A stretch of 57,408 nucleotides of DNA from Deltaproteobacteria bacterium (GTDB lineage: Bacteria > SAR324 > NAC60-12): contig JAYOTF010000022.1 in assembly GCA_038150265.1 (NCBI GenBank), positions 1-57,408 of the forward strand, given 5' to 3'. The notes below the pieces were generated by a model. That model was not told the origin of the DNA, did no database searches, and saw only the letters and a program-made list of their open reading frames with translations. Of this stretch, positions 1 to 57,408 are shown in pieces. The position numbers and the translations under genes were made by a program. Each line of letters begins with the position of its first letter. The first letter of the stretch is position 1.

Positions 1-288
1 GCAGACGCACTTGGGAGGCTCTCGGAAGTGGATGTCCCAGATGGGGAAGCCCATCATGACGTACCAGAAGGAGAACCCGATCAGGCTGATCATGATGAGG
101 TGGAGGCCAAACGGGGTGGCATTCAGACCTTCGGCAATGCCATCAAAGGTGTGGCTGTCGGTGGATTCCAGTCCCTTGGAGCGCATTCGCCCCTGAATGA
201 AATAGATCAAAATGGCCACCGACGCGAGGGTCACCAGGGAAATCACCACGGTGATCTGGGTCGCGGCGTCGTTGAACATTGCCCACAT
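1..288 (-). CDS. ccoP: cbb3-type cytochrome c oxidase subunit III (CcoP), N-terminal part, runs off window edge
   Basis: Not in the ORF track. Hand translation from ATG 288 (AGGAG at 296-300): MWAMFNDAATQITVVISLVTLASVAILIYFIQ...SHTFDGIAEGLNATPFG...WYVMMGFP. This has the CcoP N-terminal H-x-[WF]-DGI-x-E-x-x-N motif and follows ccoNOQ. Confidence 0.85.
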   Translation of the reverse strand, partial: MWAMFNDAATQITVVISLVTLASVAILIYFIQGRMRSKGLESTDSHTFDGIAEGLNATPFGLHLIMISLIGFSFWYVMMGFPIWDIHFREPPKCVC

Positions 289-317
289 AAACGTACTCCT
301 CAGTCAGTTGCAAAAAT

Positions 318-497
318 TCAGGTGGCGGAGTGGGGAGGCTCTCGCCCCTCAAACGGCTCATCATGGAAAATCAACTCGCCGCGCCGTTCAATGCGTTGCC
401 CCCGGGCGACGGAGCCGTAGAGGTACCAGAGGAACCCATAGAGGCTCACGCCCATGAAGAGGGTGAAGATCACGTACAACCACTGTCTCCAGTCCAT
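318..497 (-). CDS. ccoQ: cbb3-type cytochrome c oxidase small subunit (CcoQ), 59 aa
   Basis: Below the ORF-track size cutoff. Hand translation MDWRQWLYVIFTLFMGVSLYGFLWYLYGSVARGQRIERRGELIFHDE...; one TM helix, AGGAG RBS, lies between ccoO and ccoP. Confidence 0.8.
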   Translation of the reverse strand: MDWRQWLYVIFTLFMGVSLYGFLWYLYGSVARGQRIERRGELIFHDEPFEGREPPHSAT

Positions 498-506
498 CGG
501 GTCTCC

Positions 507-1199
507 TTACTTGAGCTTGTTGAGGTAGGCGATCAGGGCCACAACGTCCTTGACGTCTCCCTGGGCATAAGCGTCTTTGACGCTCTGGTCCTTCATCATC
601 TCGACAATGGGACCGGCTTCTTCAATCAGCAGCTGCTGGGTCTGCTCCAGGGTCTTGCCCGACTTGGGGTTGTCGCCCTGGTCGTAGGGGACCCCAAAGA
701 TGTCGCGGACGGTGACCATTTCCGCATGGACGGTGCCGACATCCACACTGTCTTCAAAGAACCAGGGGAAGTTGGGCATGTTGGAGCCAGGGCTCACGGC
801 CCGGGCGTTCTTGAAGTGAGCCTCGTGCCAATCGGTGGTCCGGTAGTTGCCGACCCGGTGCAGGTCGGGACCCGTCCGGCGAGAGCCCCAGAGGAAGGGG
901 CGGTCGTAGGCGTACTCTCCCGAAACGGAATAGGCGCCGTAGCGGTCGGTTTCCGCCTTGAAGGGGCGGATGAGCTGCGAGTGACACGCGTTGCAGCTTT
1001 CCCGGATGTAGACCTGCCGACCCGCCAGCTCAAGGGCCGAGTAGGGCTTGAGCCCGGCGACGGGGCGGGCATTTTCCGTAAAGGAGGGGATCACCTCCAC
1101 AATGCCCCCGATGATGATGAGGACAAAGATGCTGACCCCCATCAGCAACGGGTGCTTCTCAATGATCTCAAAAATTGAGCCTGTTTGTTTTTCCAGCAT
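507..1199 (-). CDS. ccoO: cbb3-type cytochrome c oxidase subunit II (monoheme)
   Basis: CNACH heme motif; GRQVYIRE and PFLWGSRRTGPDL signatures. Confidence 0.97.
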   Translation of the reverse strand: MLEKQTGSIFEIIEKHPLLMGVSIFVLIIIGGIVEVIPSFTENARPVAGLKPYSALELAGRQVYIRESCNACHSQLIRPFKAETDRYGAYSVSGEYAYDRPFLWGSRRTGPDLHRVGNYRTTDWHEAHFKNARAVSPGSNMPNFPWFFEDSVDVGTVHAEMVTVRDIFGVPYDQGDNPKSGKTLEQTQQLLIEEAGPIVEMMKDQSVKDAYAQGDVKDVVALIAYLNKLK

Positions 1200-1231
1200 G
1201 GTCGTTCACTCGTTGAAGGAAGATCCGGGGT

Positions 1232-2698: not shown

Positions 2699-2923
2699 GA
2701 CGCGTCTCCAAACGTGAAACGGGTTAATACTTGCCCGCACACTCTAGGGGGTTGTGCCAGGAGCGACCATCGGTAAATCTACGAAACAAACTGATCCGGA
2801 AGTAAGAAATTTCTCCGTCAACTGGCGAAAGCCCGAAGGTCTGGTACCCTAAAAAGGTGGCCCGCATGAAGAGCACACCGGCTCCGGACGGGGCCGGTGG
2901 ACAGCGTTTGCAAAGAGGTGAAG

Positions 2924-3598
2924 ATGAGGTTGCTGCTCCTGGAAGATGAACAAAAGGTAGCCGAGTTTGTTCAAAAGGGACTGGAAGAAGCCGGTTTTGT
3001 GGTGGAACGGGTCGAACGGGGTGAAGACGCCCTCAGCCTCGCGCTGACGGAAAACTTTGATGTCGCCATCCTCGATGTGATGGTCCCGGGCGTTGATGGC
3101 CTGACGGTGATCCGGAAGCTCCGGGAAACCCGAAACCGCCTGCCCGTGTTGGTGCTGAGTGCGAAGCACACGCTGGAAGACCGGGTCGCCGGCCTGGAGC
3201 AGGGAGCGGATGACTACCTCGTCAAGCCCTTCTCCTTCACGGAGCTGCTGGTGCGGGTGCAAGCGCTCATCCGCCGGTCGTCTCAAAGCGCCGAGCCCAC
3301 CAGCCTCTCCTTTGCTGATGTGGAGATGAACCTGCTCAGTCGCGAAGTGACACGTTCCGGACACAATCTCGCTTTGCAGCCTCGGGAGTTCAGCCTCCTG
3401 GAGTACTTCCTCCGGCATCCGGGGCGGGTGCTTTCCAAGACCTTCATCCTGGAGCACGTGTGGGGGTACGATTTCGATCCGCAGACCAATGTGGTGGACG
3501 TCCTCGTTTCACGGCTGCGGAGCAAGGTGGACAAGGACTTTGACACCAAGCTGATTCATACGCTCCGGGGTGTCGGGTATGTCCTTAAACAAAGTTAA
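2924..3598 (+). CDS. OmpR-family response regulator (CusR/CzcR-like)
   Basis: Receiver domain (LLED, ILDVMVPG, GADDYLVKPF) plus winged helix (WGYDFDPQTNVVDV, HTLRGVGY). Confidence 0.95.
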   Translation: MRLLLLEDEQKVAEFVQKGLEEAGFVVERVERGEDALSLALTENFDVAILDVMVPGVDGLTVIRKLRETRNRLPVLVLSAKHTLEDRVAGLEQGADDYLVKPFSFTELLVRVQALIRRSSQSAEPTSLSFADVEMNLLSREVTRSGHNLALQPREFSLLEYFLRHPGRVLSKTFILEHVWGYDFDPQTNVVDVLVSRLRSKVDKDFDTKLIHTLRGVGYVLKQS

Positions 3599-5048
3599 GC
3601 GCCTCTGGCCCCGCAGCCTCCGAGCCCGGTTTACCATCCTGGGAGCCGTTCTGTTCCTCATTGCCACCATCTTCATCGTTTCCTTCTCCGGAGTGCTGCT
3701 GCACCGAGAGTTCGAGTCTCGTGTGCAGGAAGCCGTGTTGGGACAGCTGGATCGCTACGCCAGGTTTGACCGGCAGTCGCCCATACGGCTCTTCCGGACC
3801 CTGCAGCGCGAGCATGAACAGAATCGGCTCCGTGGAACCTGGGTCCGGCTTCAGAATGTCTCCGGCGTGCTCTGGGAAACCGTTCCCGCGGACTGGGAGC
3901 AGGACCGCGAAGCCCTGGAGTCGGTGCTGGTGGTGCACCTGAAGTCGGGAGATGACTGGAGCCGGGCGACCCGAGAGCGTTATGAGCTTCCGGACTGGGC
4001 CAATGTCGATGACGACCACCACCGCATTCAGTTTGAGGAGGAGCTGCTCATGGCGTCCCGAGTGCTTCCGGATGGCTCGGTGCTGGTGGTGGGGGAATCG
4101 CTGGCGCGCTTTCAGATCTTCATCCGGGTGTTTGGGCGGAGCATCTTTCGGGGGGTGCTCATCATTGGGGCCGTCAGCGTGTTGGTCGGCTGGCTCCTGT
4201 CTCGGCGACTGGTGCTGCCGCTGCAGAATCTGGTGCGGACCACCGAGACGGTGGCTTCCGGAACCCTCAGTGCGCGGGTGCCGGTTCCGGACAGCACCGG
4301 GGAGCTCGAGGAGCTGACCCGGCTGTTCAACCAAATGCTGGATCGCATTGAAGGGCTGGTCGGGACCATGAACGAGTCGCTGGACAACGTTGCCCACGAC
4401 CTCCGGACCCCCTTGACCAAGATCCGTGCTTCCGTGGAGTCGGTGCTGCAGCGTCCGGATCCCAGCGCTGAGGAGCTGCGGGAGGCGTTGCTGGACACTG
4501 CTGAGGAAGCCGAAAAGATTGGGACGCTGCTCAATGCCCTGATGAACCTGGCTGAAGCCCAGGCCGGGACCCTGAAGCTCCAGAAGCAGCCTGTGGACCT
4601 CCGGCGTGTTGCTGAAGAGGTCTTTGGGCTCTATGAGATGCTTTCGGAGGAGCAGGGGGTTGCGCTTACGCTGGAACTGCCAGAAGAGGCCGTCACGGTG
4701 GAAGCCGATCCCATTCGCCTGCGGCAAGCGGTGGCGAACCTGGTGGACAACGCCCTCAAGTTTACTCCGGAAGGGGGGCGAACGACCCTTTCCGTGACCG
4801 TTGAAGCGGCGGCGGCACAGCTGGTGGTCACAGACACCGGTATTGGCATTCCTCCGGAGGAGCAGCCCCGGATCTTTGAGCGGCTGTACCGTGCAGACAA
4901 GAGCCGGGCCACTCAGGGGCTGGGGTTGGGGCTGAGCCTGGTGCAGGCGATTGTCCGCGCCCATGAGGCTCACATTGAGGTCGCCAGTGTTCCGGAAGAG
5001 GGCAGCCGGTTTGCCCTTGTGTTTCCCAAGGGGGCTCCTTCCGGGTGA
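3579..5048 (+). CDS. membrane sensor histidine kinase with HAMP domain
   Basis: Two TM helices, HAMP, H-box AHDLRTPL, N-box NLVDNALKF, DTGIGI, GLGLGL. Overlaps the regulator's stop. Confidence 0.95.
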   Translation: MSLNKVKRLWPRSLRARFTILGAVLFLIATIFIVSFSGVLLHREFESRVQEAVLGQLDRYARFDRQSPIRLFRTLQREHEQNRLRGTWVRLQNVSGVLWETVPADWEQDREALESVLVVHLKSGDDWSRATRERYELPDWANVDDDHHRIQFEEELLMASRVLPDGSVLVVGESLARFQIFIRVFGRSIFRGVLIIGAVSVLVGWLLSRRLVLPLQNLVRTTETVASGTLSARVPVPDSTGELEELTRLFNQMLDRIEGLVGTMNESLDNVAHDLRTPLTKIRASVESVLQRPDPSAEELREALLDTAEEAEKIGTLLNALMNLAEAQAGTLKLQKQPVDLRRVAEEVFGLYEMLSEEQGVALTLELPEEAVTVEADPIRLRQAVANLVDNALKFTPEGGRTTLSVTVEAAAAQLVVTDTGIGIPPEEQPRIFERLYRADKSRATQGLGLGLSLVQAIVRAHEAHIEVASVPEEGSRFALVFPKGAPSG

Positions 5049-5144
5049 GGCGCTTTCGCTTGCAGGCGTCCGGAGCTTCTTGAATAATTGACCCCTTTTG
5101 GGGCGGCTGGTGTCGCCTTCCAACCCCTTTCCCCGACGGCCCTG

Positions 5145-5564: not shown

Positions 5565-5592
5565 TTTTGGAAAAAGTAATGTGAATCCGTTC

Positions 5593-5620
5593 TTCACAAA
5601 GGGTTAACACGATCTTAACA
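5593..5620 (+). promoter_or_regulatory. Pho-box-like direct repeats upstream of pstS
   Basis: TTCACA (5593), TTAACA (5604), TTAACA (5615) at exact 11-bp spacing, about 90 bp before the pstS start. Confidence 0.7.
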
Positions 5621-5710
5621 GAAGGCCCTTATCGTGGTTACCTCATGCAGATGCATGACGATCGCAACAGGCTGTTGCTTCAACTCCCAAACCTCGATGA
5701 GAGCATTTCT

Positions 5711-7555: not shown

Positions 7556-8890
7556 TTACTGAGGCTCCTTGCCGTGCTGAATCTTGGGCCAGTAGGTCTC
7601 GAAGTTGAACAGCGGAGAGTGGCTGCCCATGTGGCACGTGGTGCAGGCGTTGGCCGCGACCTGAGGCATCTTGACCACCTCGGGCTGGGCGATGTGTGCG
7701 CGAGCAGGGCCATGGCAGCTTTCGCACTGCACGTTCATCAGGTGCGGTGTGAGCTGCGGGCTGAGGAATCCGTTCTTGCCCACAAACGCCTGGACATCGG
7801 GGGAAAGCGTGCTTCCGGGAGTGGGTTGCCACGGCTTCAGTCCAACGACATGACACTCCAGGCATTCCGGATCAAAGTGCTTGTCCTTGGCTTCTAGCGT
7901 CGCAAAGGCATGGGCGTGCCGACTGCTCTTCCAGACCTTGGCGGCCTCGGCGTGACAGGCTTCACAGACGGCGGCTCCCACAAAGGGAGACTGCTGCTGC
8001 TGCTGCTCCATGCGGTCGAGATTGGTAAAGAACAACTCCTTGACCCGGTCGTCATACTCCTGAAACGCCTGGGAAAGAGGCGGGTCATCCGGAACACTCC
8101 GACGCAACCAGTCCACACCAAATTGTGGCGTTGCCGTGACCTCTCCTGTTGCGACAAAGCGCCGCTGCTCAGGCTGCCACACGCCTTGCAACAAGCCCTG
8201 CCCCTTGGTCGGAATCATGGCGACGGTTCCGGCATCTGTGGTCCGGGTCATCACCTGCTTCAGTTCATCCGCATTGGTACTCCCGGAGAGGATCAGGTCG
8301 AACTGCCCCGACTCCTGAAACTGGGCCAATTCGGCATCGGTGCCCCGAAAGAGCAGCACCTCAAAGGCTCCGGAGCGCTCCCACGTGGCCAGGGCCTGAG
8401 ACGCGCCGTAAACACGAGGCGCCTCGTTTTCATTCTGATAGATGAGCGTGGGAGAAAGGAAGCCCCGGAGGTGGGCGACGGTTCCCTCAAACGAGACGGT
8501 GGCCTCTTGCTGGAAGGGCAGGGTGCCATCCTGGTTGCTCAGGAAGTAGGGAAGGTCTTCGGCCAGTGAGTCCAGGCCATACAGCCATTCGTTGGGACCG
8601 ACGAGGATCACGGCTGGTCCCATCTGCCGGAGGGCCGTGTGGATGACCTCAACCTTCAGGTTGCCCTGCTCGGAAGGCTCGGGGAAGTTGTTCCCGAGGT
8701 CCAGGTACACGGCGCCTTCCTGCTGCTTGAGAAAAGTGGCCCGCCGCAGCAGTCCCCCCATGTCGCCCTCCTCAGCACACCCGCAGGGCTTGATCTCCCC
8801 ACGCAGGTCTCCGGAAACGATCAGGTCGGCTCCGAAGAGGGAGGAAGTAAAGAAAAAGGTACTGAGAGCAAGAAGGCAGATCCGGGTCAT
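7556..8890 (-). CDS. periplasmic tetraheme c-type cytochrome (c554-like) fused to a UshA/5'-nucleotidase-like N-terminal domain
   Basis: Signal peptide; GDLRGEIKPCGC..GGL.RRAT N-terminus; four heme motifs CEACH, CLECH, CESCH, CTTCH. Confidence 0.88.
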   Translation of the reverse strand: MTRICLLALSTFFFTSSLFGADLIVSGDLRGEIKPCGCAEEGDMGGLLRRATFLKQQEGAVYLDLGNNFPEPSEQGNLKVEVIHTALRQMGPAVILVGPNEWLYGLDSLAEDLPYFLSNQDGTLPFQQEATVSFEGTVAHLRGFLSPTLIYQNENEAPRVYGASQALATWERSGAFEVLLFRGTDAELAQFQESGQFDLILSGSTNADELKQVMTRTTDAGTVAMIPTKGQGLLQGVWQPEQRRFVATGEVTATPQFGVDWLRRSVPDDPPLSQAFQEYDDRVKELFFTNLDRMEQQQQQSPFVGAAVCEACHAEAAKVWKSSRHAHAFATLEAKDKHFDPECLECHVVGLKPWQPTPGSTLSPDVQAFVGKNGFLSPQLTPHLMNVQCESCHGPARAHIAQPEVVKMPQVAANACTTCHMGSHSPLFNFETYWPKIQHGKEPQ

Positions 8891-10176
8891 TCGTATTCAG
8901 ATACGCAAAGGAGTTCTCGGAAGGAAACCAATCCATCGCCTGCAACGCTATCTTCCTGGTCGAGGTCGTTCATGTTACTGACACCCGTTGCAATGTCACT
9001 GAGGGCCGCTTCATAGCTATAGGTGTAGCCTGCTGCAGACTTGAATACTTTCCGCAGGCTGACGATTGTTGGACCTCCAGAAGTAGACGGAGCCGAGATG
9101 CTGGAGTCAACGTTGGTCTGGATCTCCAGCAGCGGTACCAGGTTGCGTTGCTTGCCTCCGGTAATATCTGCAAGAGTAGTTGCGTTATCCGCTGAGTTTT
9201 TGGTCACGAAAAAAACCTTGTCGAACTCAGCTGTTGCGCCGCAGTCAGTACCGTTTTTCTTCTTGAGCCCGTTGTCAAGAGGCTCGGTCGATTCGAGCAG
9301 GTCCGTCCGGAACGAGCTGTCTGCCGCGACCCCCATCTCTGCAAAATCGCTGTTGAGGGATTCGGTTGCGGTGACAATACTGGTGGCTAGTCCCGTTGAC
9401 GCTGAAGCATTTAGGTACTGGGTGAGGTCCGTGACGTTGTCAACCTTCAGGAAGGCGATCACGCTGCTAGGCTGGGCGACCGGGCAGGCTCCGGTAATTG
9501 AGGATGGATTGGCAATATAATCTCCGTAGTCGAGACCAAATGCTTCGCAGGTACCGTTGCCCGTATTCTGGACATAACGCGTTCCATTGATCACCACCTC
9601 AAGAGTCGAATTATCGATGGAGAGAACCGGGATCGTAACGTTGTTCAGGCTTCCGGAGCCGGTAAAAGTATCGACTTCACTATTGTCGATGGTGCCATCT
9701 CGCGGTGACTGATCCAAGGTTCCGTAAACGGTGTAGAGGAGGTCAACCAAGTTGGCAAACATGGCGACCTCGCAGTCACCGTTGGCACAACTGCGACTCC
9801 CGGTTCGCTTCACGGAGTTGGTGGTGCAGCGGCTACTGGAGGTGATGTTGTCGGAGCCAACGAGACAAAGCGCATTAGTGATGTACTGGCGGTTGCCTGC
9901 CGTGTAGTCCGTTGCATTGTCCAGAGACTGGATATTCAGAGCCGTATTGAGGTTATCCGTGGCCCCGTCCTCAAGGAGGTTGCTCATGGAAATCTCGGCC
10001 TTCCCGAGATACGCGCTGGCTTTTTCGTAGTTGGTGCAGTCACCGGCAATGACGGCGTCAAAGTTGGAGTTGTCCAGGTCGACGCCGCAACCGGCAGCGG
10101 TCTCCTGAGACTCTCCACAGGCCGAGAGGAGCAGCGTCACTCCGGCCAAGAGAATGAAAAATAAGGAACGTTTCAT
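8887..10176 (-). CDS. hypothetical acidic Ser/Thr/Asn-rich lipoprotein
   Basis: LLSAC lipobox; 4-bp ATGA overlap with the downstream cytochrome gene; lower GC than its neighbours. Confidence 0.8.
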   Translation of the reverse strand: MKRSLFFILLAGVTLLLSACGESQETAAGCGVDLDNSNFDAVIAGDCTNYEKASAYLGKAEISMSNLLEDGATDNLNTALNIQSLDNATDYTAGNRQYITNALCLVGSDNITSSSRCTTNSVKRTGSRSCANGDCEVAMFANLVDLLYTVYGTLDQSPRDGTIDNSEVDTFTGSGSLNNVTIPVLSIDNSTLEVVINGTRYVQNTGNGTCEAFGLDYGDYIANPSSITGACPVAQPSSVIAFLKVDNVTDLTQYLNASASTGLATSIVTATESLNSDFAEMGVAADSSFRTDLLESTEPLDNGLKKKNGTDCGATAEFDKVFFVTKNSADNATTLADITGGKQRNLVPLLEIQTNVDSSISAPSTSGGPTIVSLRKVFKSAAGYTYSYEAALSDIATGVSNMNDLDQEDSVAGDGLVSFRELLCVSEYE

Positions 10177-10196
10177 AGAAGTACCAAACAGAGAGA

Positions 10197-11876
10197 TCAG
10201 GTTTCCGGTGCAGGAGTGGGTTCAGCGTCTTCTGAGGCGTCAGCAGGAAGAGGGGGCAACGCTTCAGCAACAGGCGCAATGACAGCATCGACCTGGTGCT
10301 GTGTCACGACATCCAGGGTCGCGAGGCTGCCCACCAGGGGTTCAACGTCTTCCGGGTACAGGGCATGGGCCGCGAGGAGCGCACTCAGGTAGCGGCGCTG
10401 CAGGTCCAGCCCCTCTGCGGCGTCCACCTGCTGCCGAAGCAACTCGAGCAACGGCATCGGAGAGGTCCCCTGCGCCTTCAGAGAAGGATAAACGTGGGCA
10501 ACGAGGCTCAGCTGCTGCAGGAGCGCCAGGCGCACCGTCTCCGGAGTCTCGGAAATTTCCAGATCCTGATGAAGCCGGTCGAGGGCCTGAAGCACCTGGT
10601 TGAGGACATTCGAGTCATCAAAGCGGTACCCTCGCTCCAGTGCCGGAAGCAGGATTTGCTGCACAACGGCACGCTTGATCATGGCATCATCATCGTAGCC
10701 GTCCAGTGGAAACGCGAGCAGGGTGGCAGCAGGAGCGTTTCCTCGCTGGCCAGTCTGTTGCTTGGTCAGTTGCTGCTGCAACACCGCGTCCCAGTGAGTC
10801 AGGAGGAAGATCGTCGGCTGAGTTTCCAGATCCGTCAGCATGCCTGAAGACGGAACCGGAGGCTGGTTGGCGGGGAAGCCGTAAAGCTGCAGGCGCTCCT
10901 GAGAGGCGCTGATCATCTGCCGGAGTTCAGACGGAATCTCTTCATCGAGCACCCACTGGTCCTGCACGATCTGATCAAAGGTCTCCTGGCGTGACGGGCT
11001 CAGGCCAAACCGGTGCGTCTCTCCAGCCAGCAACACCACCTGGGCACGGACCCAGAGTGGAAGGTCGTTGTTGCGCAGAAGGTCCTTCAACTGCTCCCAG
11101 ACCTGCTGCTTGAGGTCTTCGGAGTCCCCCTGCCATTCCTTTTTCTCTGCCGGCTCTTCGCTGGCCAGCATGTCTCCGGCACTTTCGCGGATGCTGTCGG
11201 AGCAGAGGCTGTCCGGACACTTGTCCATGGCCATGTTGCCCCACTGCTCAATGTCCTTGCGGATGCCTTCATCACAGATGTCCACAGGGCACCGCTCCAG
11301 AGTGGGAAGGGCGGTGAAGAAACGCTTCAGGCCCGAAGCGGCTTCGGTTTGTAGCGCCACGTCCCACTCGGGAAGCGACTCCACAAGGTACTCAATCGCC
11401 TCCACCCGCTGGTCCACCTCCACCCCAAAGCGCATGGGCTGGTCGTCCACCAACTCCTGAAACCCCAGCTCGCCGGTGGTGACGTCAAAGACGCCGTTGA
11501 GGGCCGCTCGTTTCAGGTGGGCGGGCCATTCCGGAGATTCCAGAATATCGGTGATGCGGGAGAGGCTTCGCTCCCGGACGTCACCATCGTCACTGCCAAA
11601 TGCCATGAAGGCGAGGGCACGGACGGCGATCTCGCGTTTGCCGACATCGTCCATGTACTTGGAGATCCAGCGGGCCTCCTTGAGGGCGCTGACTTTTTGC
11701 TGAACGGAGCCATCGTAGGCCTCATACTTCAGCAGTTCCATTTGGGCCTGAAGCTCCTCGTAGCTGGAGCTTTGTTCAAAGGACAGGTACGTCAGGCGTC
11801 CCTGAGTGGTGCAACCGGCCAGCACGAGCAGGACGGTAGCGATGAAGGTCAGTTGGTTCATCAGGCGTCTCGTCAT
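10197..11876 (-). CDS. hypothetical alpha-helical lipoprotein
   Basis: VLAGC lipobox after ATG 11876 (alternative ATG 11861); long ORF inside the operon. Confidence 0.75.
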   Translation of the reverse strand: MTRRLMNQLTFIATVLLVLAGCTTQGRLTYLSFEQSSSYEELQAQMELLKYEAYDGSVQQKVSALKEARWISKYMDDVGKREIAVRALAFMAFGSDDGDVRERSLSRITDILESPEWPAHLKRAALNGVFDVTTGELGFQELVDDQPMRFGVEVDQRVEAIEYLVESLPEWDVALQTEAASGLKRFFTALPTLERCPVDICDEGIRKDIEQWGNMAMDKCPDSLCSDSIRESAGDMLASEEPAEKKEWQGDSEDLKQQVWEQLKDLLRNNDLPLWVRAQVVLLAGETHRFGLSPSRQETFDQIVQDQWVLDEEIPSELRQMISASQERLQLYGFPANQPPVPSSGMLTDLETQPTIFLLTHWDAVLQQQLTKQQTGQRGNAPAATLLAFPLDGYDDDAMIKRAVVQQILLPALERGYRFDDSNVLNQVLQALDRLHQDLEISETPETVRLALLQQLSLVAHVYPSLKAQGTSPMPLLELLRQQVDAAEGLDLQRRYLSALLAAHALYPEDVEPLVGSLATLDVVTQHQVDAVIAPVAEALPPLPADASEDAEPTPAPET

Positions 11877-11880
11877 GTGG

Positions 11881-12999
11881 TCAGAACAGGAATCCGGCTT
11901 GGAAGGCCCAGCGTTTGTCTTCTTTTTCACCAGCATAGCTGCCGATCTCTTCCGAATATTGTGCAAAATCGAGCTTCAGTTTCCAGAGGTTCAGAGACAG
12001 GCCCCAGCTGCTGTAGGGACCGTTTCGTCCCAGCCGGAAGGAAACCAGGTGGTGTCCGTTGTTGAGCTTCTCCCATCCGATCTCGGCGCCCAGCTTCAGG
12101 TTCCGCTGAGTGAGGAAGGAGTCACTCAACTCCTGAGCGCCCAGGAGGTCGAGGTAATCGGCAGCCAGCAGGAAGTCAAAGCCCTGAAACTCCGACTCGG
12201 TAGCAATGCCGGTGTTGATCGTCATGGGCACCTCACCGGCATTTCCAAAGTTCAGGCCTCCGATGTTCTGCAGGCTGATGGCGACTTTGGGGGAGAGGTT
12301 GTGAAACTCCTCCAGGTGATAGGTTGCACCCAGATCCGGAGCAAAGCTGAGCTTGTTGTCGCCAATGGCTTCAATCTCTTTTTGGGCCTGGTCCGTGTCA
12401 TCGTTGAGGGTGGCAATCACCGCAGGATCCGAGAGGCGGAAGTCCTGATTGTACACCCCAACCCGCTGGACGAGCTTTCCGCCCACCCCGACATCAAGCT
12501 GGTGGTCCATGAAGCTAAAGCCCACGGCGCCCGCCAGTCCCCCCTGAACATAGGCGGTGCCATGCAGGTACGGGAACACAGGGTTCCGGATCTGGAAGTC
12601 AAACAGGGTGTTGCTGAAAAGCGCCCACCCGAACCGCGAATTCACAAACGAAGGCAGGTTGAGCCCGGCTTCAACGTGGATGTTCTTCCCGGTGATTTCC
12701 GCCAGGTTTTCCACCTTGGTGTTATCCGCGTCCACACTTCCTTCCAACCCCCCGGATGAAACGTTGCTAGCGACCTGGACGGAGGTCAACTCAAAGATAT
12801 TGTACATCACCGAGCGCAAGCCGGCCGGGTTGTAAAACAGCACCGACTCGTCATTGGCCGCGGCCGTAAACGCGTTTCCCATGCCACGGGCACGGATGCT
12901 TTCTTTAACGAAAGCTGCTTCTTTTGCCGAAGCCGCCGTTGCTCCAACGAGCACGAGAAGTCCGCTACAGAGGAGCTTCCGGATCGGATTCCAAGTCAT
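11881..12999 (-). CDS. outer-membrane beta-barrel protein (TraF-like/PorV/FadL-like)
   Basis: Signal peptide; RARGMGNAFTAAAND...FYNPAGL plug motif; amphipathic strands; terminal Phe (AGFLF). Confidence 0.8.
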   Translation of the reverse strand: MTWNPIRKLLCSGLLVLVGATAASAKEAAFVKESIRARGMGNAFTAAANDESVLFYNPAGLRSVMYNIFELTSVQVASNVSSGGLEGSVDADNTKVENLAEITGKNIHVEAGLNLPSFVNSRFGWALFSNTLFDFQIRNPVFPYLHGTAYVQGGLAGAVGFSFMDHQLDVGVGGKLVQRVGVYNQDFRLSDPAVIATLNDDTDQAQKEIEAIGDNKLSFAPDLGATYHLEEFHNLSPKVAISLQNIGGLNFGNAGEVPMTINTGIATESEFQGFDFLLAADYLDLLGAQELSDSFLTQRNLKLGAEIGWEKLNNGHHLVSFRLGRNGPYSSWGLSLNLWKLKLDFAQYSEEIGSYAGEKEDKRWAFQAGFLF

Positions 13000-23750: not shown

Positions 23751-25589
23751 ATGCGTGTTTTGTTGTTGGTACTGCTGAGCCTCAGTCTGTTCAGCTGTTC
23801 CGTTCCCCGTCCCGAGGCTCCGGCGCCTCAGGCCGATCGTGGCATCCGTCGCACGGCTTCCGAGTCGGGAGAGCGCGTGGCACTGGTCCTGGGCAATGCC
23901 CGTTACACGACGAGTCCGCTGAAGAATCCGGTCCGCGACGCCCAGGCGATGGCCTCCTTGCTGGAGGACGCCCAGTTTGAGGTGATGCTGCTTGAAGACG
24001 CGTCCTACGCCCAGATGGAGGAAGCCCTGAACGCCTTCGGGGAGAAGCTCAGCCGTGCCCGGGTGGCGCTGTTTTACTATGCGGGCCACGGCGTGCAGTC
24101 GCAGGGTCGCAATTACCTGATGCCCGTCGATGCGGCCATCCGGAAGCCTCACGAGCTGCGGTACCAGACGATGGAGCTGGGACGCATTCTGGACACGATG
24201 GAAAGTGCCGGAAGCGCGACCAATCTGGTGATTCTGGATGCCTGCCGCAACAACCCGTTTGAATCGGCATGGCGTTCGGAGCAACGAGGGCTGGCGCCGG
24301 TGCGAGCCCCCGGAGGGACCTTTGTTGCGTTTGCCACCGCCCCCGGAGAAGTCGCAGCAGACGGGACCGGGCAGCATGGACTCTACACTGAGGCCCTGCT
24401 CCGGAACCTCCGGACCCCAGGTGTGCCCGTGGAGCTGGCCTTCAAGCGCGTCCGCCAGGACGTACTGCTGGCGAGCAACCAGCAGCAGGTCCCATGGGAT
24501 CAGTCGTCTCTGACGGCAGACTTCCGCTTCTTTCCTGCCGCTGAGGGCAGCGAAGCCGAGGCCACGCCCGTGCCCGTGGTGGTGTGCGAAGAGGCGTGCC
24601 AGCAGCAGCGGTTGGCCTCCATGCGTCAGGAATTTGCGGCACTCCGCGAGCAGGAACTGACCCGTCCGGATCCTGCCAAGCTGGTGCAACGCTGGCAGGC
24701 GTTTCTGCAGAACCATCAGGGCCGGTCTGCTTCGGTGACAGAAGAGAACACGATGCGCGCCAAAGCCCGGAAGCAACTCGCTTTCTGGAAGCAGGAACAG
24801 CAGGCGTTGCAGTCCAATGCAGACCAGAAGCAGCGTCAGTGGGCCCAAGGCACCTGGACGGAGCCTGCCACGCAGATGGAGTTCGTGGCCGTTGAAGGAG
24901 ACCCGTTTTTTCGCAAAGGAAATCTGTTGGTCGAGGACCCGCAGTGGGAAGAAGTCGCCGTCCCGCGCTTTTGGATGTCGCGCTACGAAGTGACCCTTGC
25001 CCAGTGGGAGGCGCTGATGACGCAGCCAACGGAAGCTCCACCTGCTGACTCCGTCAAGGGGTGGGTCACACAGACCCTCCGCAAGGGGTGGGAGAGCGCC
25101 AAGCAGGTGGCTCAGCAGTACCTTCCCGAAAAGCAGATCCCGGTTGTGGGCAAGACGTCTTCTGAGGTGGCAGACTTCCTCTCGCGCCTCAATGCCCTCC
25201 ATCCGGAGGGACCGGAGATCCGGTTACCCACCGCCGCAGAATGGGAGTACGCCTGCCGAGAAGGCGGTCGGCGGACTCGTTTTGGAACAGGAAAGATGAC
25301 CCTCAGTTTGTATGACGCCAATTTTCAACCGGAAGCCGACCGCCCCGACTTTGTGCTGGGGCCAGGTCGTGACACCACCAAACTGGCACCAGTGGGTTCG
25401 TATGAGCCCAACGCGCTGGGACTGTACGACCTCAGTGGCAATGCCGCGGAGTGGGTGGATGGCCTGGAACAGCTCCGGGGGGGCAGCTTTCAGGATGACA
25501 GCACCGCTCTGCAGTGTGCCACGTCTCAGCGAGCCCGTTTGTGGGGACCTGACCCGACCGCGGGTTTGCGGCTGGTGAGGGGGTACTGA
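23751..25589 (+). CDS. lipoprotein with caspase-family (peptidase C14) domain and C-terminal FGE-sulfatase/SUMF1-like domain
   Basis: LFSC lipobox; ALVLGN, LKNPVRDA, FYYAGHG (catalytic His), ILDACR (catalytic Cys); RLPTAAEWEYACR, PNALGLYDLSGNAAEW, RGGSF, GLRLVR. Confidence 0.92.
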   Translation: MRVLLLVLLSLSLFSCSVPRPEAPAPQADRGIRRTASESGERVALVLGNARYTTSPLKNPVRDAQAMASLLEDAQFEVMLLEDASYAQMEEALNAFGEKLSRARVALFYYAGHGVQSQGRNYLMPVDAAIRKPHELRYQTMELGRILDTMESAGSATNLVILDACRNNPFESAWRSEQRGLAPVRAPGGTFVAFATAPGEVAADGTGQHGLYTEALLRNLRTPGVPVELAFKRVRQDVLLASNQQQVPWDQSSLTADFRFFPAAEGSEAEATPVPVVVCEEACQQQRLASMRQEFAALREQELTRPDPAKLVQRWQAFLQNHQGRSASVTEENTMRAKARKQLAFWKQEQQALQSNADQKQRQWAQGTWTEPATQMEFVAVEGDPFFRKGNLLVEDPQWEEVAVPRFWMSRYEVTLAQWEALMTQPTEAPPADSVKGWVTQTLRKGWESAKQVAQQYLPEKQIPVVGKTSSEVADFLSRLNALHPEGPEIRLPTAAEWEYACREGGRRTRFGTGKMTLSLYDANFQPEADRPDFVLGPGRDTTKLAPVGSYEPNALGLYDLSGNAAEWVDGLEQLRGGSFQDDSTALQCATSQRARLWGPDPTAGLRLVRGY

Positions 25590-26473: not shown

Positions 26474-27403
26474 ATGTTGAATGATTGCCCCTCAACCCAG
26501 ACCATGGCCAACTTTTCGGATGGCACCCTTCCGGACACCGAGCACCAGAAGGTGGTGGAGCACCTGGCCGCTTGCCGGGACTGCTCCGAGTGGATGGCGG
26601 TGCTGATGGAAACCAAGGAGGCGCTGCCGCACCTCTTCCAGGAAGAAGCCACCTCTCAGGCGGCTCCCGTTGTGAAGCTCCCTCCGGCCAACAAACGCCG
26701 CCCGGTCCAGAAACGTCCCTTCCAGTGGAAGCCTCTGCTGGTGGCCGCGTCCATTTCGGTGGTCGCCGCCATGAGCCTGATCACGACCCTGTCCAGTGGT
26801 CCCAAGCTCGAAGGCATGGGCGCGGCCGCTGTGGCGGAGCGACTCAAGACCCTGCCGGCTTCAGCAGATTCGGTTCCGCAGGAGACGGTGATGGGCTTTT
26901 CCTCAGCGACCACACCGGCCCAGTCGGCATTTGCCACCGGGCTGCTGATGACGCGCTCCACGCATTACCTCGTGACCAACGACCTGCCGTCGGCGGCGGC
27001 GACCTTTGAGGAACTGGAACAGCTCAACCTGAACCCGACGCTGAACCGCCAGCTGTACGTCTGGAAGACCTGGGCGAGGCAGACTCGAGATGCGTCTTAT
27101 GCGCTCCCTCCAGAAGTGGAACACTGGGAAGGACGCTTTGCCTCAGACGCGGAGCGTCCCTACCTGCACCTCGGTGAGTTGGCAGAAGGGAGCCGCATTG
27201 CCATTCTTCACCAGGACCAGAGCTTCTTCCGAGACCTCCCGCTCCGGACCCTGCGGTCCGAGTTGGAGTCGGCCCAGGCGCTGCCCGGCGTGTTCCGGAG
27301 CCTGGAAACGCTGGAGCTGCTGGCCCTTTCTCCAGACCCCACGGACCACCAGTGGCAAGAAGCTGATGAGGCGGTCCGCGACCTGATCCTGCTCTTCCAA
27401 TGA
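26474..27403 (+). CDS. zf-HC2 (ZAS) transmembrane anti-sigma factor
   Basis: CP...HLAACRDC zinc motif, one TM helix (WKPLLVAASISVVAAMSLI), extracytoplasmic C-terminal domain; follows the sigma gene. Confidence 0.8.
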   Translation: MLNDCPSTQTMANFSDGTLPDTEHQKVVEHLAACRDCSEWMAVLMETKEALPHLFQEEATSQAAPVVKLPPANKRRPVQKRPFQWKPLLVAASISVVAAMSLITTLSSGPKLEGMGAAAVAERLKTLPASADSVPQETVMGFSSATTPAQSAFATGLLMTRSTHYLVTNDLPSAAATFEELEQLNLNPTLNRQLYVWKTWARQTRDASYALPPEVEHWEGRFASDAERPYLHLGELAEGSRIAILHQDQSFFRDLPLRTLRSELESAQALPGVFRSLETLELLALSPDPTDHQWQEADEAVRDLILLFQ

Positions 27404-32180: not shown

Positions 32181-33900
32181 TCCGGATTTCGGCAAGGCGT
32201 TGTTCGTAGTAGTTGCTTCCGGAGGGGGCATCTGGAGCAGGCCCCTGATCCGCCAGCCGCAGGGCCTCCCGGGCGGCATGCAGGGCCTCTTCATACTGAC
32301 CTTGCTGCCGGTAGCCTTCAGCCAGGGTGTCCCAGATGAAGGCTGCAGGCTGGTGCGCCAGTGCCGCCTGTGCAAGCTGAATCGACTCCGCAAGGGCTTC
32401 CGGATCATGAGCGCGGTTTTCTGCCAGCACCCACGCGAGGTTGTTGAGGGTCCGGGGATCGTCAGGAGCGAGCTCCAGGGCCTGTCGGTAGTAGCGTTCT
32501 GCCTCCTCCAGGTGGCCCTGTGAGTAGGCCAGGTCTCCCAGCTGGGTGAGGAATCCGGAATCGCGGGGCGTCAGGGTTTCGTTGTGCTGCACGTACCAGG
32601 TGAGCCACTGGCGGATGCCGGCGTTGGAGGTGGCGTAGCTGTTGATGCCGATGGTGCAGAGCAGGGTCAGGACGCATCCGAACTGAATCCAGCGGACGCG
32701 TCGGTGGTGTGCGGAAACCCGCTCCGGCTCCTGCGCGCCCACCTTGAGGAAGTTGAGGCGGTCCAGGATGCCGTAGTGGTGCCAGTTGGGCTTTTCGGGG
32801 TCAATGCCATTGAGCCACGCCACCTTCAGCAGGGCCCGTCCCATCGGTTCCAGGCCAACGCGTTCCAGGGCATTGCAGTCGGCCTGCCGCTCAAAGTTGC
32901 GGCTGAGGAAGCCAAGTCCGAAACGCAGAAACAGCAGCAGGGCGAGGATGGTGAAGCTTCCGTAAAAGACGGCGGGCAGCTCCCATTCCCCGAACCACTC
33001 CGTGACCGTCAGGGCGGCTGAGAGCAGCATCATGCCTTCGAGGAAGGCGAAGAAGGCGAAGGCGTAGAAGAGCAGGTGCTGCTTGCGGAGGTGTCCGGCT
33101 TCATGAGCAATGACGGCCCGGAGCTCCTCCGGCGTGAGGGCATTCAGCAACTGGCGGCTGATGAGCAGGTACCGGAGTCCTGGAAGCAGCCCAACCACGC
33201 CGGCCGTCGCACTGGAGAGCAGCTCCTCGGGCCAGAGCAACACCTTCCGGACCGAGACGCCGTTGTGCTGCAGCTCGTCTTCAATGAGGAACCGGCCTTC
33301 ACTTTCCGGAAGCCCCTCCAGGTTCCAGGCCTTCATCATCACCGGCGGAGCCAGAGCGATCATGAGAACCAGGCTGCTCAGGGTGCTCAGCAGCAGCTCG
33401 GCATTGAGCGGCAGGTCTTCCGTCCACAGCGGGAGGACGCTTAGCCACACCGAATGAACGGCCCCGAGGATCAGCAGGGGCAACTGCAGGCGCAGGTTCC
33501 GGACCAGCCGAGTTCGGTAGCCCTCCCGGTGGGGAGAGAGCGGGGTGATGGCAAGGGAGTCGAGCAGCCAAAAATGCACAATGAGCAATCCGAAGGCCCA
33601 CCCGTCGGGACTCCAGCCTTCCTGAAACACCGCCTGCAGGCGCAGGTCGAGCGCTTCGGTGTAGATGGCCCCGAGCCACGCGGTGAGGATGAGCAGGCGC
33701 TTGAAGTGCTGCTGCCGCTGCAGGGAGAGGTGCCGGCTTTGAAACGAGGCTTGCCCGATCCAAAACGCGAGCCCCAGCAGCCCCAACAGGGTCAGCGGCC
33801 AGGGGAGGTTCAGCCACGCCTCCGGACGAGCCGCTGTGTCTTCCGTGAGCAACGATAGACTGAGGGACGCCAGAATGAGGGGAAGAAAGGGCAAGAACAT
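32170..33900 (-). CDS. membrane M48 (HtpX/Ste24-like) metalloprotease with C-terminal TPR
   Basis: Multiple TM helices; AVIAHEAGH, FERQAD; TPR (LNNLAW, DTLAE). Confidence 0.88.
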   Translation of the reverse strand: MFLPFLPLILASLSLSLLTEDTAARPEAWLNLPWPLTLLGLLGLAFWIGQASFQSRHLSLQRQQHFKRLLILTAWLGAIYTEALDLRLQAVFQEGWSPDGWAFGLLIVHFWLLDSLAITPLSPHREGYRTRLVRNLRLQLPLLILGAVHSVWLSVLPLWTEDLPLNAELLLSTLSSLVLMIALAPPVMMKAWNLEGLPESEGRFLIEDELQHNGVSVRKVLLWPEELLSSATAGVVGLLPGLRYLLISRQLLNALTPEELRAVIAHEAGHLRKQHLLFYAFAFFAFLEGMMLLSAALTVTEWFGEWELPAVFYGSFTILALLLFLRFGLGFLSRNFERQADCNALERVGLEPMGRALLKVAWLNGIDPEKPNWHHYGILDRLNFLKVGAQEPERVSAHHRRVRWIQFGCVLTLLCTIGINSYATSNAGIRQWLTWYVQHNETLTPRDSGFLTQLGDLAYSQGHLEEAERYYRQALELAPDDPRTLNNLAWVLAENRAHDPEALAESIQLAQAALAHQPAAFIWDTLAEGYRQQGQYEEALHAAREALRLADQGPAPDAPSGSNYYEQRLAEIRNAR

Positions 33901-51606: not shown

Positions 51607-51635
51607 AAGAGAAGGCCCCTTCTGCTCGGGAAGAG

Positions 51636-53575: not shown

Positions 53576-53694
53576 GTATTTTCCTTGTTAGGGCTAGAAC
53601 CAGTTCCAGCGTTGTTGAAACCACGGTTGGGACACAACCGTCACCAAGGTTGGAGGCATGCTCCCAGTCAGATCATAGGCAACTCCTTGAGGAA

Positions 53695-54471: not shown

Positions 54472-54477
54472 TTCGAG

Positions 54478-55656: not shown

Positions 55657-56540
55657 GGCGCTTCCGAGGCGAGAGACGGCAACGTGGGAGGAATGCTCCG
55701 GTCTTCGTGTTGGCCCATCCAACCGACGTCTCCGCTTTCCTGGAACCTCCGGCTGCCCACGGTGAGGATGGCGTCGTCGGAAACCGGATGCAGCGGCGTG
55801 TAGCGTGGGTGTCGCGATTCCTTGTAGGGATTGTTGCGAGCCGCGTTGTAGCAGCAGATCATTGCCCAACGCGGGTGCTCCGAACGGTTCTGATCGGAGC
55901 GGTGCAGGAGGTTGCAGTGGAAGAAGAGCGTGTCGCCCGGATTCAGTTCAACGTGGACGCGTTCAAACTGCTCCAGGGCCACTTCCACCCGCTCCAGGTC
56001 GGCCCCCGCCTGTTCGCCGGTCAGGCCGTGGTCGAGGCGTCCGAGGTGATGGGTGCCCCGCAGCACCTGCAGGCAGCCGTTGGCCTGAGTGGAAGGATCC
56101 ACGGCAATCATGGCGCTGGCCATCAGGGGCTGCAGGCAGCCGTAGTGGTACCAGTAGCCGTAGTCCTGATGCCACTCCCACGCCCCGCCCACCCGGGGGT
56201 CCTTGAGGATCATCTTCGAGTGGTAGTGGTAGACCTCGCCCTCCAGCAGCTCCGTCATGCGGGCGACCAGGCGCGTACTCCGGGCAAACATGCCATAAAT
56301 GCCGTCCCCCGGGTGGTTCCAGAGCGAGAGCCGCACCGTTCCTCCTTCAGCATCCTGACGTCCCTGGCTGTGTTCGTCCAACTCCCGATCCGTCCGGGCG
56401 GTTTGTCCCAGCAGGGTGATCTCCTCCGGAGTGAAGAGCCCCCGCGCAATGAGGAAACCATCGCGCTGAAAGGCCTCTCGTTCCGCAGGCGTCCAAAGAG
56501 ACGGCTGAGGGGAAGGGGACAGGCTCGGGGCAGGCGTCAT
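55653..56540 (-). CDS. phytanoyl-CoA dioxygenase (PhyH) family Fe(II)/2-oxoglutarate dioxygenase
   Basis: FQRDGF, WHQD, NGCL, GDTLFFH..LLHRS..N.S..R. Start could be 56570. Confidence 0.9.
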   Translation of the reverse strand: MTPAPSLSPSPQPSLWTPAEREAFQRDGFLIARGLFTPEEITLLGQTARTDRELDEHSQGRQDAEGGTVRLSLWNHPGDGIYGMFARSTRLVARMTELLEGEVYHYHSKMILKDPRVGGAWEWHQDYGYWYHYGCLQPLMASAMIAVDPSTQANGCLQVLRGTHHLGRLDHGLTGEQAGADLERVEVALEQFERVHVELNPGDTLFFHCNLLHRSDQNRSEHPRWAMICCYNAARNNPYKESRHPRYTPLHPVSDDAILTVGSRRFQESGDVGWMGQHEDRSIPPTLPSLASEAP

Positions 56541-56559
56541 GGCGAACTCCGTGAGGGGG

Positions 56560-57255
56560 TTAACTGACAAAGTACTCCTGGTACTCCTTGCGGACGCGCT
56601 CCAGGTCCGTAAAGACCGTGTTCAGGTGAGAACGCATGGCGGCAACCGCCTTGGACTCATTGCGCTCCCCGATTGCCTGCAGGACATCGCTGTGCTCCCG
56701 GACAATCTCCACGCGACGTTCCCGGTAGGGAACCGACAACCGCCGGACCCGGTCCATGTGTGACTTGGCGCTGTTGGTGATCTTCCACAGACGGGTCTTG
56801 TAGCGAAGCTCCGCAATGGAGCGGTGAAACTGCTCATCCAGCTCAAACAGCTCCTCAAAGTCTCCCAGTTCAATGGCCTGCTCGTAGTCCTCGACCAACC
56901 GCTCCGTTCGCTGCAGCCAGTCCGGAGGAGCCGTCTGAGCGGCATAGCGGACCGTGGCCACTTCCATGGCCTCCCGGATGAACTGACTCTCGTGCACGGC
57001 TTCAACGCTGATGCGCGAAACATAAGTGCCCGCCTGCGGGAAGATCTCCACCAGGCCCTCGTCTGCCAAGCGAAGCAGCGCCTCCCGGATCGGCGTCCGG
57101 GAGACCTCCATCTGCTCGCTCAACTCGCGCTCCTTCAGGATCTGCCCTGGCTTCAGCCTGACTGAAACAATGGCCTGGTGCAGCAAGGCGTTGATCTGCG
57201 GGGCAATCGAGGCTCGGCGATCAATCTTAAATTCAAAGGCTTGGAATTCCGTCAC
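56560..57255 (-). CDS. GntR family transcriptional regulator with FCD domain
   Basis: LKPG..L.E..L...VSRTPIREAL; D..FH; EH..V. Confidence 0.93.
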   Translation of the reverse strand: MTEFQAFEFKIDRRASIAPQINALLHQAIVSVRLKPGQILKERELSEQMEVSRTPIREALLRLADEGLVEIFPQAGTYVSRISVEAVHESQFIREAMEVATVRYAAQTAPPDWLQRTERLVEDYEQAIELGDFEELFELDEQFHRSIAELRYKTRLWKITNSAKSHMDRVRRLSVPYRERRVEIVREHSDVLQAIGERNESKAVAAMRSHLNTVFTDLERVRKEYQEYFVS

Positions 57256-57339
57256 TCAACCAACTTCTTTGACCTGCTCCAAGAGTCCCGCGCCAACGCC
57301 CGGGGGCTGACCTCCGGCTTCGGAGGCTGAAAATGAATT

Positions 57340-57369
57340 TTAATATATTAACATAATTCCAAGTGTCAA
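57340..57369 (-). promoter_or_regulatory. sigma-70 promoter with overlapping palindromic operator
   Basis: Minus strand TTGACA (57369-57364), 16 bp, TATATT (57347-57342). Perfect palindrome TTAATATATTAA at 57340-57351. Confidence 0.65.
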
Positions 57370-57408
57370 CGGAAAACCGAACCTGCTTCCGCAGGGCCAT
57401 CGCATGAA

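Follow-up and report, generated by a model that had tools for sequence, protein, structure and literature searches.

TCCGGA, a genome-wide iterated palindrome of the HIP kind in a lineage of the phylum SAR324

Introduction

When a six-base word recurs many times over a few kilobases, is it a by-product of the proteins encoded there, or does a force act on the DNA itself? This question was raised by a contig of a SAR324 bacterium (JAYOTF010000022.1, contig C22 of genome G000), the whole of which, 57,408 nt, is called the window here. An original prediction, made by eye, proposed that the palindrome TCCGGA is heavily over-represented throughout the window in the manner of the highly iterated palindrome HIP1 of cyanobacteria. 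The word was suggested to be a signal, driven by a methylase or selected (for repair, recombination, nucleoid organization or DNA uptake), and possibly to be useful for dating accessory genes. The genome that holds the window comprises 3,393,712 bp in 87 contigs, with a guanine-plus-cytosine (GC) content of 61.2% and a completeness of 97.8%; the names of homologs of one of its proteins also point to the SAR324 cluster. The analysis showed that TCCGGA is indeed an iterated palindrome of the HIP kind, and that the signal is genome-wide and lies in the DNA itself.

TCCGGA in the window and in the genome

All 14 of the positions first listed, from 3111 to 5069, were exact matches. The window as a whole contains 175 copies (3.05 per kb) spread over all 57,408 nt. 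Base composition predicts 0.33 per kb, in agreement with the early estimate of under one per 2 kb. Dinucleotide-preserving shuffles gave an expectation of 21.76 copies (standard deviation 4.29, maximum 31), and none of 100 shuffles reached 175, so that the over-representation is stronger than had been claimed.

In the whole genome TCCGGA occurs 9,711 times (2.86 per kb) and ranks first among all 4,096 hexamers, followed by CCGGAG/CTCCGG with 5,456 copies. Markov models predict 1,118 copies at order 0 (observed/expected ratio, O/E, 8.7), 1,283 at order 1 (7.6), 2,457 at order 2 (3.95) and 4,068 at order 3 (2.39). Such an abundance, far above composition and low-order expectation, is characteristic of palindromes of the HIP class. 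The order-4 expectation of 7,959 (O/E 1.22) is near-circular, because the model is made from TCCGG and CCGGA, both inflated by the motif; even here a surplus of 1,752 copies persists, and the enrichment does not disappear.

The word is a true hexamer, with at most 0.076 bit of information at any flanking position. The preference is graded: compared with the neutral relative G014, half-site words of the form xCCGGA are about 2.5-fold more abundant, and the CCGG core about 2-fold. A restriction–modification site is avoided or neutral in its host, whereas TCCGGA is enriched. The genome gave no match to the Cfr10I/Bse634I endonuclease family in a search run without a positive control.

Independence from coding

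Gene calls made for this analysis gave 2,716 genes covering 88% of the genome. They contain 8,702 copies of TCCGGA, of which 2,052 are read as TCC GGA, 2,381 as xTC CGG Axx and 4,269 as xxT CCG GAx (frames 0, 1 and 2). Permutation of codons within genes left 1,281±44 copies. A synonymous shuffle, in which each protein and the codon usage of each gene were held constant, left 2,083±48, which corresponds to an O/E of 4.18. The excess is not confined to one reading frame, as the three frames are raised 3.9-, 3.3- and 5.1-fold. Non-coding DNA carries 966 copies in 412 kb, compared with 128 (order 0; 7.6-fold) or 160 (order 1) expected. TCCGGA is thus in excess in all frames and outside genes as well, more than codon usage explains, as is a palindrome of the HIP class, and the original prediction of a genome-wide, DNA-level signal held under the codon model.

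Occupancy was expressed relative to permitted sites, that is, places where the protein allows TCCGGA by synonymous choice (Ser-Gly, [FLIV]-Arg-[IMTNKSR] and x-Pro-[DE]). In the genome of the window, 8,700 of 21,152 permitted sites (41%) are filled, and some contexts (Val/Phe/Ile-Arg-Thr) are filled to about 80%. A neutral relative in the same family fills 4.3%. In a genome of genus g11 with a GC content of 43%, 28–35% of permitted sites are filled and TCCGGA is the second commonest hexamer (g and f denote genera and families; G000 and its congener G002 belong to genus g1 of family f1). The force behind TCCGGA acts against base composition.

The proteome is affected as well. The O/E of Ser-Gly is 1.35–1.51 in four TCCGGA-rich genomes and 0.98–1.22 in four others, while that of Pro-[Asp/Glu] is 1.52–1.56 compared with 1.01–1.32; sampling of the non-rich genomes was limited (17–58 thousand residues), and the direction is consistent over GC contents of 43–61%. 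The dipeptides in excess are those that permit the motif. The proteome thus appears to have been reshaped, an indication that a signal in the DNA can leave a measurable mark on the encoded proteins.

Occupancy of individual genes

Occupancy per gene is binomial, with a dispersion ratio of 1.02 over 1,850 genes. Among the 1,150 genes with at least eight permitted sites, none is an outlier at p<0.001. Occupancy is nearly flat with GC content at third codon positions (0.39–0.43 across quintiles). Within the window, 161 of 383 permitted sites (42%) are filled in 45 called genes, none of which deviates.

The stretch with 14 copies (3111–5074) covers, by Pfam assignment, a response-regulator gene (2897–3595, forward strand), a histidine-kinase gene (3570–5045, forward strand) and the start of a rhodanese-domain gene. 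In the histidine-kinase gene, TCCGGA fills 11 of 18 permitted sites, a non-significant excess (upper-tail binomial p = 0.07). A caspase module had been described as rich in the word. The gene concerned, which encodes caspase (Peptidase_C14) and FGE-sulfatase domains according to Pfam (23751–25586, forward strand), carries five copies, with an average 5 of 15 permitted sites filled; the 14-copy stretch is a two-component system instead. The cco operon had been described as sparse, and the count of three copies (1878, 2431 and 2480) in ccoO (FixO, 510–1199) and ccoN (COX1, 1235–2740; both Pfam, reverse strand) was right, but occupancy is ordinary, at 3 of 10 permitted sites. These genes look poor in TCCGGA because their amino-acid sequences offer few permitted sites, not because occupancy is lower.

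Density differences within the window mirror amino-acid content, not residence time. The use of TCCGGA to date accessory genes therefore fails in the window, and per-gene occupancy was rejected as a clock for acquired genes, given the lack of outliers among the 1,150 genes. Outside the window, the small contigs C61 (11 of 48 permitted sites filled) and C63 (14 of 62) of the same genome show low occupancy and may be recently acquired DNA. Given these two contigs, the clock idea may work for true islands. One protein encoded on C61, of 1,027 residues, contains an NPPY motif and matched no family in Pfam or NCBIfam.

Occupancy also varies with position in the gene. It is 0.29 in the first tenth, 0.38 in the last tenth and 0.41–0.45 in the middle; mis-called starts in the crude gene calls may add to the low values at gene ends. 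Site pairs spanning gene borders number 556, compared with 721 expected.

Distribution across SAR324

Counts of TCCGGA were compared with those of AGGCCT, its reversed, composition-matched counterpart, in 72 SAR324 genomes of 80% completeness or more. The ratio is high in family f1, at 3.9–5.9 in g1, 4.8–32 in g11 (12 of 12 genomes) and 14–30 in g12. It is intermediate in g4, g6, g3 and g10, which are leads only, 1.8–2.5 in g7 and about 1 in g2, g5, g8 and g9. In several lineages it falls far below 1, as in G069 (31 vs 1,584) and G073 (15 vs 1,435). Outside f1 the ratio is misleading, as G065 is raised at the level of the CCGG core and the value of G055 combines a preference for GCCGGC with depletion of AGGCCT.

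Hexamer counts in sequence samples gave a more specific picture. TCCGGA ranks first in G002 (g1, 397 kb, O/E 7.5) and in G013 (g12, 400 kb, O/E 7.6), and second in G047 (g11, GC 43%, 133 kb, O/E 10.0). It is neutral in G014 of g2 (88 kb, O/E 1.07). In 58 kb of G069 (f7, g37) the whole CCGG core is avoided (O/E 0.08), with no TCCGGA compared with 8.8 expected. Every CCGG word is up about 2-fold in 150 kb of G065 (f7, g34), and in 200 kb of G055 (f4, GC 35%) GCCGGC is favored 10.2-fold. TCCGGA-specific enrichment is verified only for g1, g11 and g12, with GC contents of 43–61%. Across the phylum, strong forces act on words with a CCGG core, and they diverge between lineages. Close relatives without the word, with a different CCGG-core word or with avoidance of CCGG provide a ready comparative system for finding the responsible genes.

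Turnover and conservation of sites

The genome of G002 is collinear with the window, and 394,860 bp of G000 and G002 were aligned at 82.1% identity. In this alignment 539 of 1,205 TCCGGA sites are kept (0.447). The mean over 1,676 hexamers is 0.32 (standard deviation 0.11), and TCCGGA ranks 226th. Conservation of synonymous positions was assessed for conserved amino acids, with the same codons elsewhere as reference. Positions inside the motif are more conserved, with odds ratios of 1.75 for CCG, 1.89 for CGG, 1.54 for GGA, 2.91 for xTC and 2.42 for xxT; five of six classes are significant (p between 0.003 and 1e-18). No extra conservation is seen in codons that have their wobble base immediately outside the motif (odds ratios 0.80 and 0.71).

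Single-step differences from TCCGGA between the two genomes occur at all positions, most of them at the outer T and A (259 of 576), and have no dominant C-to-T signature. Individual TCCGGA sites turn over while density stays.

Flanks, spacing and helical register

Flanking bases were compared between occupied and unoccupied permitted sites. At third codon positions, occupied sites of frame 0 prefer T at −1 (0.29 vs 0.16) and C at +8 (0.57 vs 0.44), and those of frame 2 prefer the mirror-image G at −3 (0.54 vs 0.39). The preference is symmetric and yields a weak 12-bp palindrome, G-N-T-TCCGGA-A-N-C.

Distances between sites have a periodicity of 10.5 bp. Under a context null, which retained all permitted sites together with the level of occupancy found in every exact amino-acid context, the power in G000 is 33.5, compared with a null maximum of 8.1 (0 of 300). 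With occupancy permuted among permitted sites, it is 29.0 compared with 5.7 (0 of 400). The signal appears with the same phase in subsets restricted to frame 0 or to frame 2, and it was recovered in random halves (power 12.8 and 14.3) and quarters (5.8–7.6) of the genes. Out of 28 hexamers tested, TCCGGA alone has this periodicity.

An origin in protein α-helices was considered as well. The peak offset is steady at 9.4, 9.9, 9.5 and 9.6 nt over four distance ranges to 320 nt, while at the α-helix period (10.8 nt) it moves from 8.6 to 2.7. Site pairs in different genes give a weak signal of the same phase (offset 9.9), reached by 10 of 300 nulls at the pre-set period of 10.5 and by 0 of 300 at 10.3. 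Phase coherence to 320 nt at 10.5 rather than 10.8, together with the different-gene pairs, points to the DNA helix and disfavors an α-helical origin. The same period and phase were found in 797 kb of G002 (power 3.67, offset 9.9, 1 of 400 under the context null). Samples of about 400 kb from G002 and G013 gave no significant phasing, which is a matter of power, since G000 subsets of the same size give 1.1–4.3.

TCCGGA copies repel one another below 50 bp. Pairs 5–20 bp apart are depleted in G000 (193 vs 370±17), G002 (25 vs 63.7±7.6) and G013 (34 vs 55.1±7.0). The 10.5-bp register and the short-range repulsion offer a structural handle that is not known from HIP1 studies.

Methyltransferases, repair and competence genes

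The original prediction named a methyltransferase as a possible driver, and this could not be established. The 97.8%-complete genome has no match to PF00145 (C5 methyltransferase) or PF03852 (Vsr). It likewise has none to PF02976 or PF03925 (MutH and SeqA), while the E. coli control was detected; MutS is present. Among 18 genomes of g1, g11 and g12, none has an intact C5 methyltransferase, and two fragments and one pseudogene remnant were found. Intact C5 enzymes occur in five of six strongly CCGG-depleted f7 genomes.

A route through 5-methylcytosine (m5C) and Vsr was rejected on this gene content. Moreover, the T-for-C neighbors that a system of the Dcm/Vsr type depletes are not depleted. 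The transition neighbors TCTGGA/TCCAGA have an O/E of 2.58, compared with 2.13 in the neutral relative, and TTCGGA/TCCGAA have 1.34 compared with 0.96. A system of the Dam/SeqA/MutH type would include a MutH or SeqA homolog, for which the searches of G000 were negative.

Two SPPY-type methyltransferases are encoded in G000. The first, MT-A (G000:C45:2844-3617), has a full-length homolog only in G001 (71% identity). It was rejected as the driver, as the congener G002 has only a 45-residue fragment, yet is rich in TCCGGA, and as the gene adjoins a retron-type reverse transcriptase. We take MT-A to be an accessory gene. Its locus on C45 (L001:35-3159) consists of the reverse transcriptase, then MT-A, then a 311-residue open reading frame (ORF) without a family match. 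The reverse transcriptase scores 200 bits against the NCBIfam retron St85 family, just below the 235-bit cut-off, and the locus is possibly a retron-like defense module with a methyltransferase partner.

The second, MT-B (G000:C51:248-1384), has orthologs in 28 of 35 f1 genomes and 12 of 15 f2 genomes, and in none of 21 genomes of other families. It is found in 16 of the 18 g1, g11 and g12 genomes, and the seven g11 copies examined are all intact. It is also found in five of six genomes of the neutral genus g2, four of them at 48–49% identity, and is conserved throughout the order. The presence of MT-B does not track TCCGGA enrichment. Its closest solved relatives are N4-cytosine DNA methyltransferases, with a match confined to the motif region, and searches of solved structures and NCBIfam with MT-B indicated no specificity. 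An N-terminal segment of MT-B (L002:2-247, on C51) is made up of highly charged repeats rich in Arg, Asp and Glu. The open frames of the orthologs span 664–732 residues in g1, 558–614 in g12 and 433 in g2, which are upper bounds on protein length.

ComEC and DprA are present in G000. They are not discriminating, as 10 and 11 of 14 control genomes have them as well.

Mechanism

The pattern of sites could be accounted for by a DNA reader, symmetric and probably a dimer, under which the density and spacing of TCCGGA are subject to selection or drive. This explanation is tentatively favored over its rivals, at somewhat less than an even chance. Of the mechanisms considered below, it alone leads one to expect helical phasing, repulsion and a symmetric footprint. 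A lineage-specific process would read double-stranded DNA symmetrically, most likely through a sequence-specific protein that acts as a dimer and covers about 12 bp, and would favor the creation and retention of TCCGGA wherever coding permits. Density (41% of permitted places) and spacing would be maintained, rather than individual sites. In g1, sites in 10.5-bp register over at least 300 bp would allow the reader to engage arrays on one face of the DNA, and such array reading may serve chromosome organization or the marking of self-DNA. The force may be either weak selection per site or molecular drive. The existence of the protein, its dimeric state and its purpose are what we infer.

A more specific form of the proposal is possible, although more doubtful. 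TCCGGA would be the word of an undescribed SAR324 chromosome-reading system, in which a dimeric protein acts on helically phased arrays and is possibly coupled to MT-B. Pressure on the sites would override base composition (43–61% GC) and shift the dipeptides of the proteome, and relatives would have been retuned to GCCGGC or to CCGG avoidance.

Several observations weigh against a reader. No reader protein was identified in this analysis. Conservation of non-coding TCCGGA (46 of 119, compared with 33% for all hexamers) is not significantly raised (p = 0.21). Between G000 and G013, where four-fold sites are 37.5% identical, a test stratified by identical amino-acid context found 204 co-occupied sites compared with 184 expected (Mantel–Haenszel odds ratio 1.47), a value close to that expected from residual unsaturated identity. 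Synonymous conservation can also be raised by a context-specific equilibrium without site-specific selection, and neutral molecular drive would likewise give binomial occupancy and an altered proteome. The periodic modulation is small, about ±10–14% of pair counts. In G002, the more conservative within-gene permutation gave a power of only 0.87 (58 of 300). The g12 genome G013 (780 kb) has a significant near-helical periodicity, with identical phase in both random gene halves, but its best period is 9.8 and its peaks are shifted by 4–5 nt, so that reading on the same face does not generalize as it stands. Finally, the avoidance of close pairs could reflect hairpin avoidance, because two copies of a palindrome make an inverted repeat.

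The strongest rival to the reader, itself rather unlikely, is methylation-linked biased repair, an adaptation of Elhai's ratchet in which an orphan methyltransferase marks TCCGGA or CCGG and repair fixes mutations toward the word, leaving a functionless by-product. The published version based on m5C cannot apply here; the mark would necessarily be N4-methylcytosine and the candidate enzyme MT-B, with its SPPY motif and its nearest solved relatives. In cyanobacteria, every alternate HIP is matched by a cognate methyltransferase (Elhai 2015, PMC4390886). The lineage-specific forces on CCGG suit such a process (TCCGGA 7.5–10-fold in g1, g11 and g12, GCCGGC in G055, all CCGG words in G065, avoidance in G069), as do the wide presence of MT-B in the enriched genera, the presence of MutS, and uniform occupancy with turnover, which is what a neutral genome-wide bias would leave. 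Single-step differences peak at the outer T and A, as is reported for HIP1 in that study. Nevertheless, C5 methyltransferase, Vsr, MutH and SeqA were not found in G000, nor an intact C5 enzyme in the enriched genera, MT-B is equally present in the non-enriched g2 and f2, the transition neighbors are not depleted, and a simple ratchet predicts neither the 10.5-bp register nor the repulsion.

A DNA-uptake or recombination signal is less probable still. Machinery preferring DNA that bears TCCGGA would spread copies through biased uptake and homologous recombination. Known uptake sequences are asymmetric words of 9–12 bp at about one per kb, whereas TCCGGA is a 6-bp palindrome with weak symmetric flanks, atypical for an uptake signal, and a word of this kind discriminates only about 10-fold against foreign DNA. 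To our knowledge, no uptake receptor or uptake bias has been described for SAR324, and the ComEC and DprA that would speak for uptake occur in most bacteria. Density kept with turnover, uniformity in core genes, low occupancy of C63 and C61, a lineage-specific word and a reshaped proteome are all consistent with uptake drive; the 10.5-bp register is not predicted by it. HIP1 has itself recently been proposed as an uptake signal, and tied to methylation-dependent transformation (PMC13756078; bioRxiv 10.1101/2024.09.10.611283). The reader, methylation-linked and uptake mechanisms are not exclusive, and a methyltransferase could itself be the reader.

Two further explanations have a negligible chance. 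Codon usage, codon pairs or favored dipeptides might produce TCCGGA without a DNA-level cause, as would suit the large share of coding copies in frame 2 and the frequency of Ser-Gly and Pro-Asp/Glu dipeptides; this is refuted by the excess left after the synonymous shuffle, raised in three frames and matched in non-coding DNA, and by the same-family relative that fills few of the same kinds of sites, while the dipeptide excess is limited to the four TCCGGA-rich genomes and is thus more likely a consequence. A dispersed repeat or miniature mobile element has nothing but the high copy number in its favor and is refuted by the uninformative flanks, by frame-compatible copies in at least 1,634 different genes and by binomial occupancy.

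Relation to known systems

HIP1 (GCGATCGC) is described as a GC-rich palindrome found in all frames and in non-coding DNA, lineage-wide, with conservation between close genomes above background, and its cause is debated, with selection and biased repair as the contenders (Xu, Lawrence and Durand 2018, PMC5861425; Elhai 2015, PMC4390886). TCCGGA shares with it the hyper-abundance in every frame and in non-coding DNA, the lineage-wide occurrence and the clustering of one-letter variants at the outer positions. It differs in having 6 bp rather than 8, a CCGG core rather than GATC/CGATCG and a host in the phylum SAR324. HIP1 proper is the octamer with GATC/CGATCG methylation; in G000, GATC has an O/E of 1.32 and CGATCG one of 0.40. 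By comparison with HIP1, the O/E of TCCGGA is lower (8.7 vs 15–300), no m5C enzyme is present and no cognate methyltransferase was identified, and its periodicity is 10.5 bp (distances up to 320 bp, contigs up to 213 kb) rather than 10–90 kb.

Closer in form are the alternate HIPs of cyanobacteria, GGCGCC, rCCGGy and GCsGC (Elhai 2015, PMC4390886). These are short GC-rich palindromes of 5–6 bp that replace each other between related lineages, and the rCCGGy of Oscillatoria PCC 10802 has the same CCGG core as TCCGGA. Carriers of the rCCGGy methyltransferase there mostly avoid the word and one lineage accumulates it, which mirrors the CCGG avoiders and accumulators of SAR324. The difference lies in the cognate m5C methyltransferase of those cases and in Elhai's model, which needs G-m5C; an intact C5 enzyme is lacking in all 18 TCCGGA-rich genomes. 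As there is no m5C methyltransferase here, the m5C-based repair model cannot be a general explanation.

SeqA needs GATC sites on the same helical face. The Dam GATC system with SeqA and MutH, in which a short palindrome is read by dimeric proteins after orphan methylation, is accordingly the nearest precedent for phased reading. It differs in that GATC is not hyper-abundant and in that the MutH and SeqA families were not found in G000. Dcm/Vsr is alike in that repair alters how often a short palindrome and its neighbors occur; it differs in both of its enzymes and in the T-for-C depletion, all lacking in G000. The uptake signal sequences (USS) of Haemophilus and the DNA uptake sequences (DUS) of Neisseria are maintained by drive with turnover, form lineage "dialects" and affect peptides. 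TCCGGA resembles them in genome-wide density, turnover, lineage specificity and peptide effects, and differs in its length and symmetry.

The kind of feature is therefore known from HIP1 and the alternate HIPs. What is new is the phylum, the word, the absence of an m5C enzyme, the helical register, and CCGG words that are retuned or avoided from one sister lineage to another. A literature search that did not cover subscription journals found no paper on the abundance of the TCCGGA palindrome or on palindromes of SAR324, and Elhai 2015 (PMC4390886) does not mention TCCGGA. Iterated palindromes have been studied almost solely in cyanobacteria, and the function of HIP1 is debated after 30 years. 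TCCGGA provides a second, independent case, in an abundant and uncultured marine phylum. The word is also a strong marker for binning and contamination in the enriched SAR324 genera.

Minor observations

Enzymes of the BspEI/Kpn2I type, which we take to recognize TCCGGA, would cleave unprotected TCCGGA-rich DNA at intervals of about 350 bp. Other short words are very scarce in G000, namely CTAG (574 copies, O/E 0.05), TATA (O/E 0.07) and ATAT (O/E 0.12).

In the window, two proteins with M48-peptidase and TPR domains are encoded near the caspase gene, at 27400–29145 and 32173–33900. On the reverse strand, the region 7559–11966 holds three large adjoining ORFs. One encodes a multihaem cytochrome with c554/c7 matches (7559–8890), and the other two encode 429 and 589 residues, with no Pfam match at E≤1e-5.

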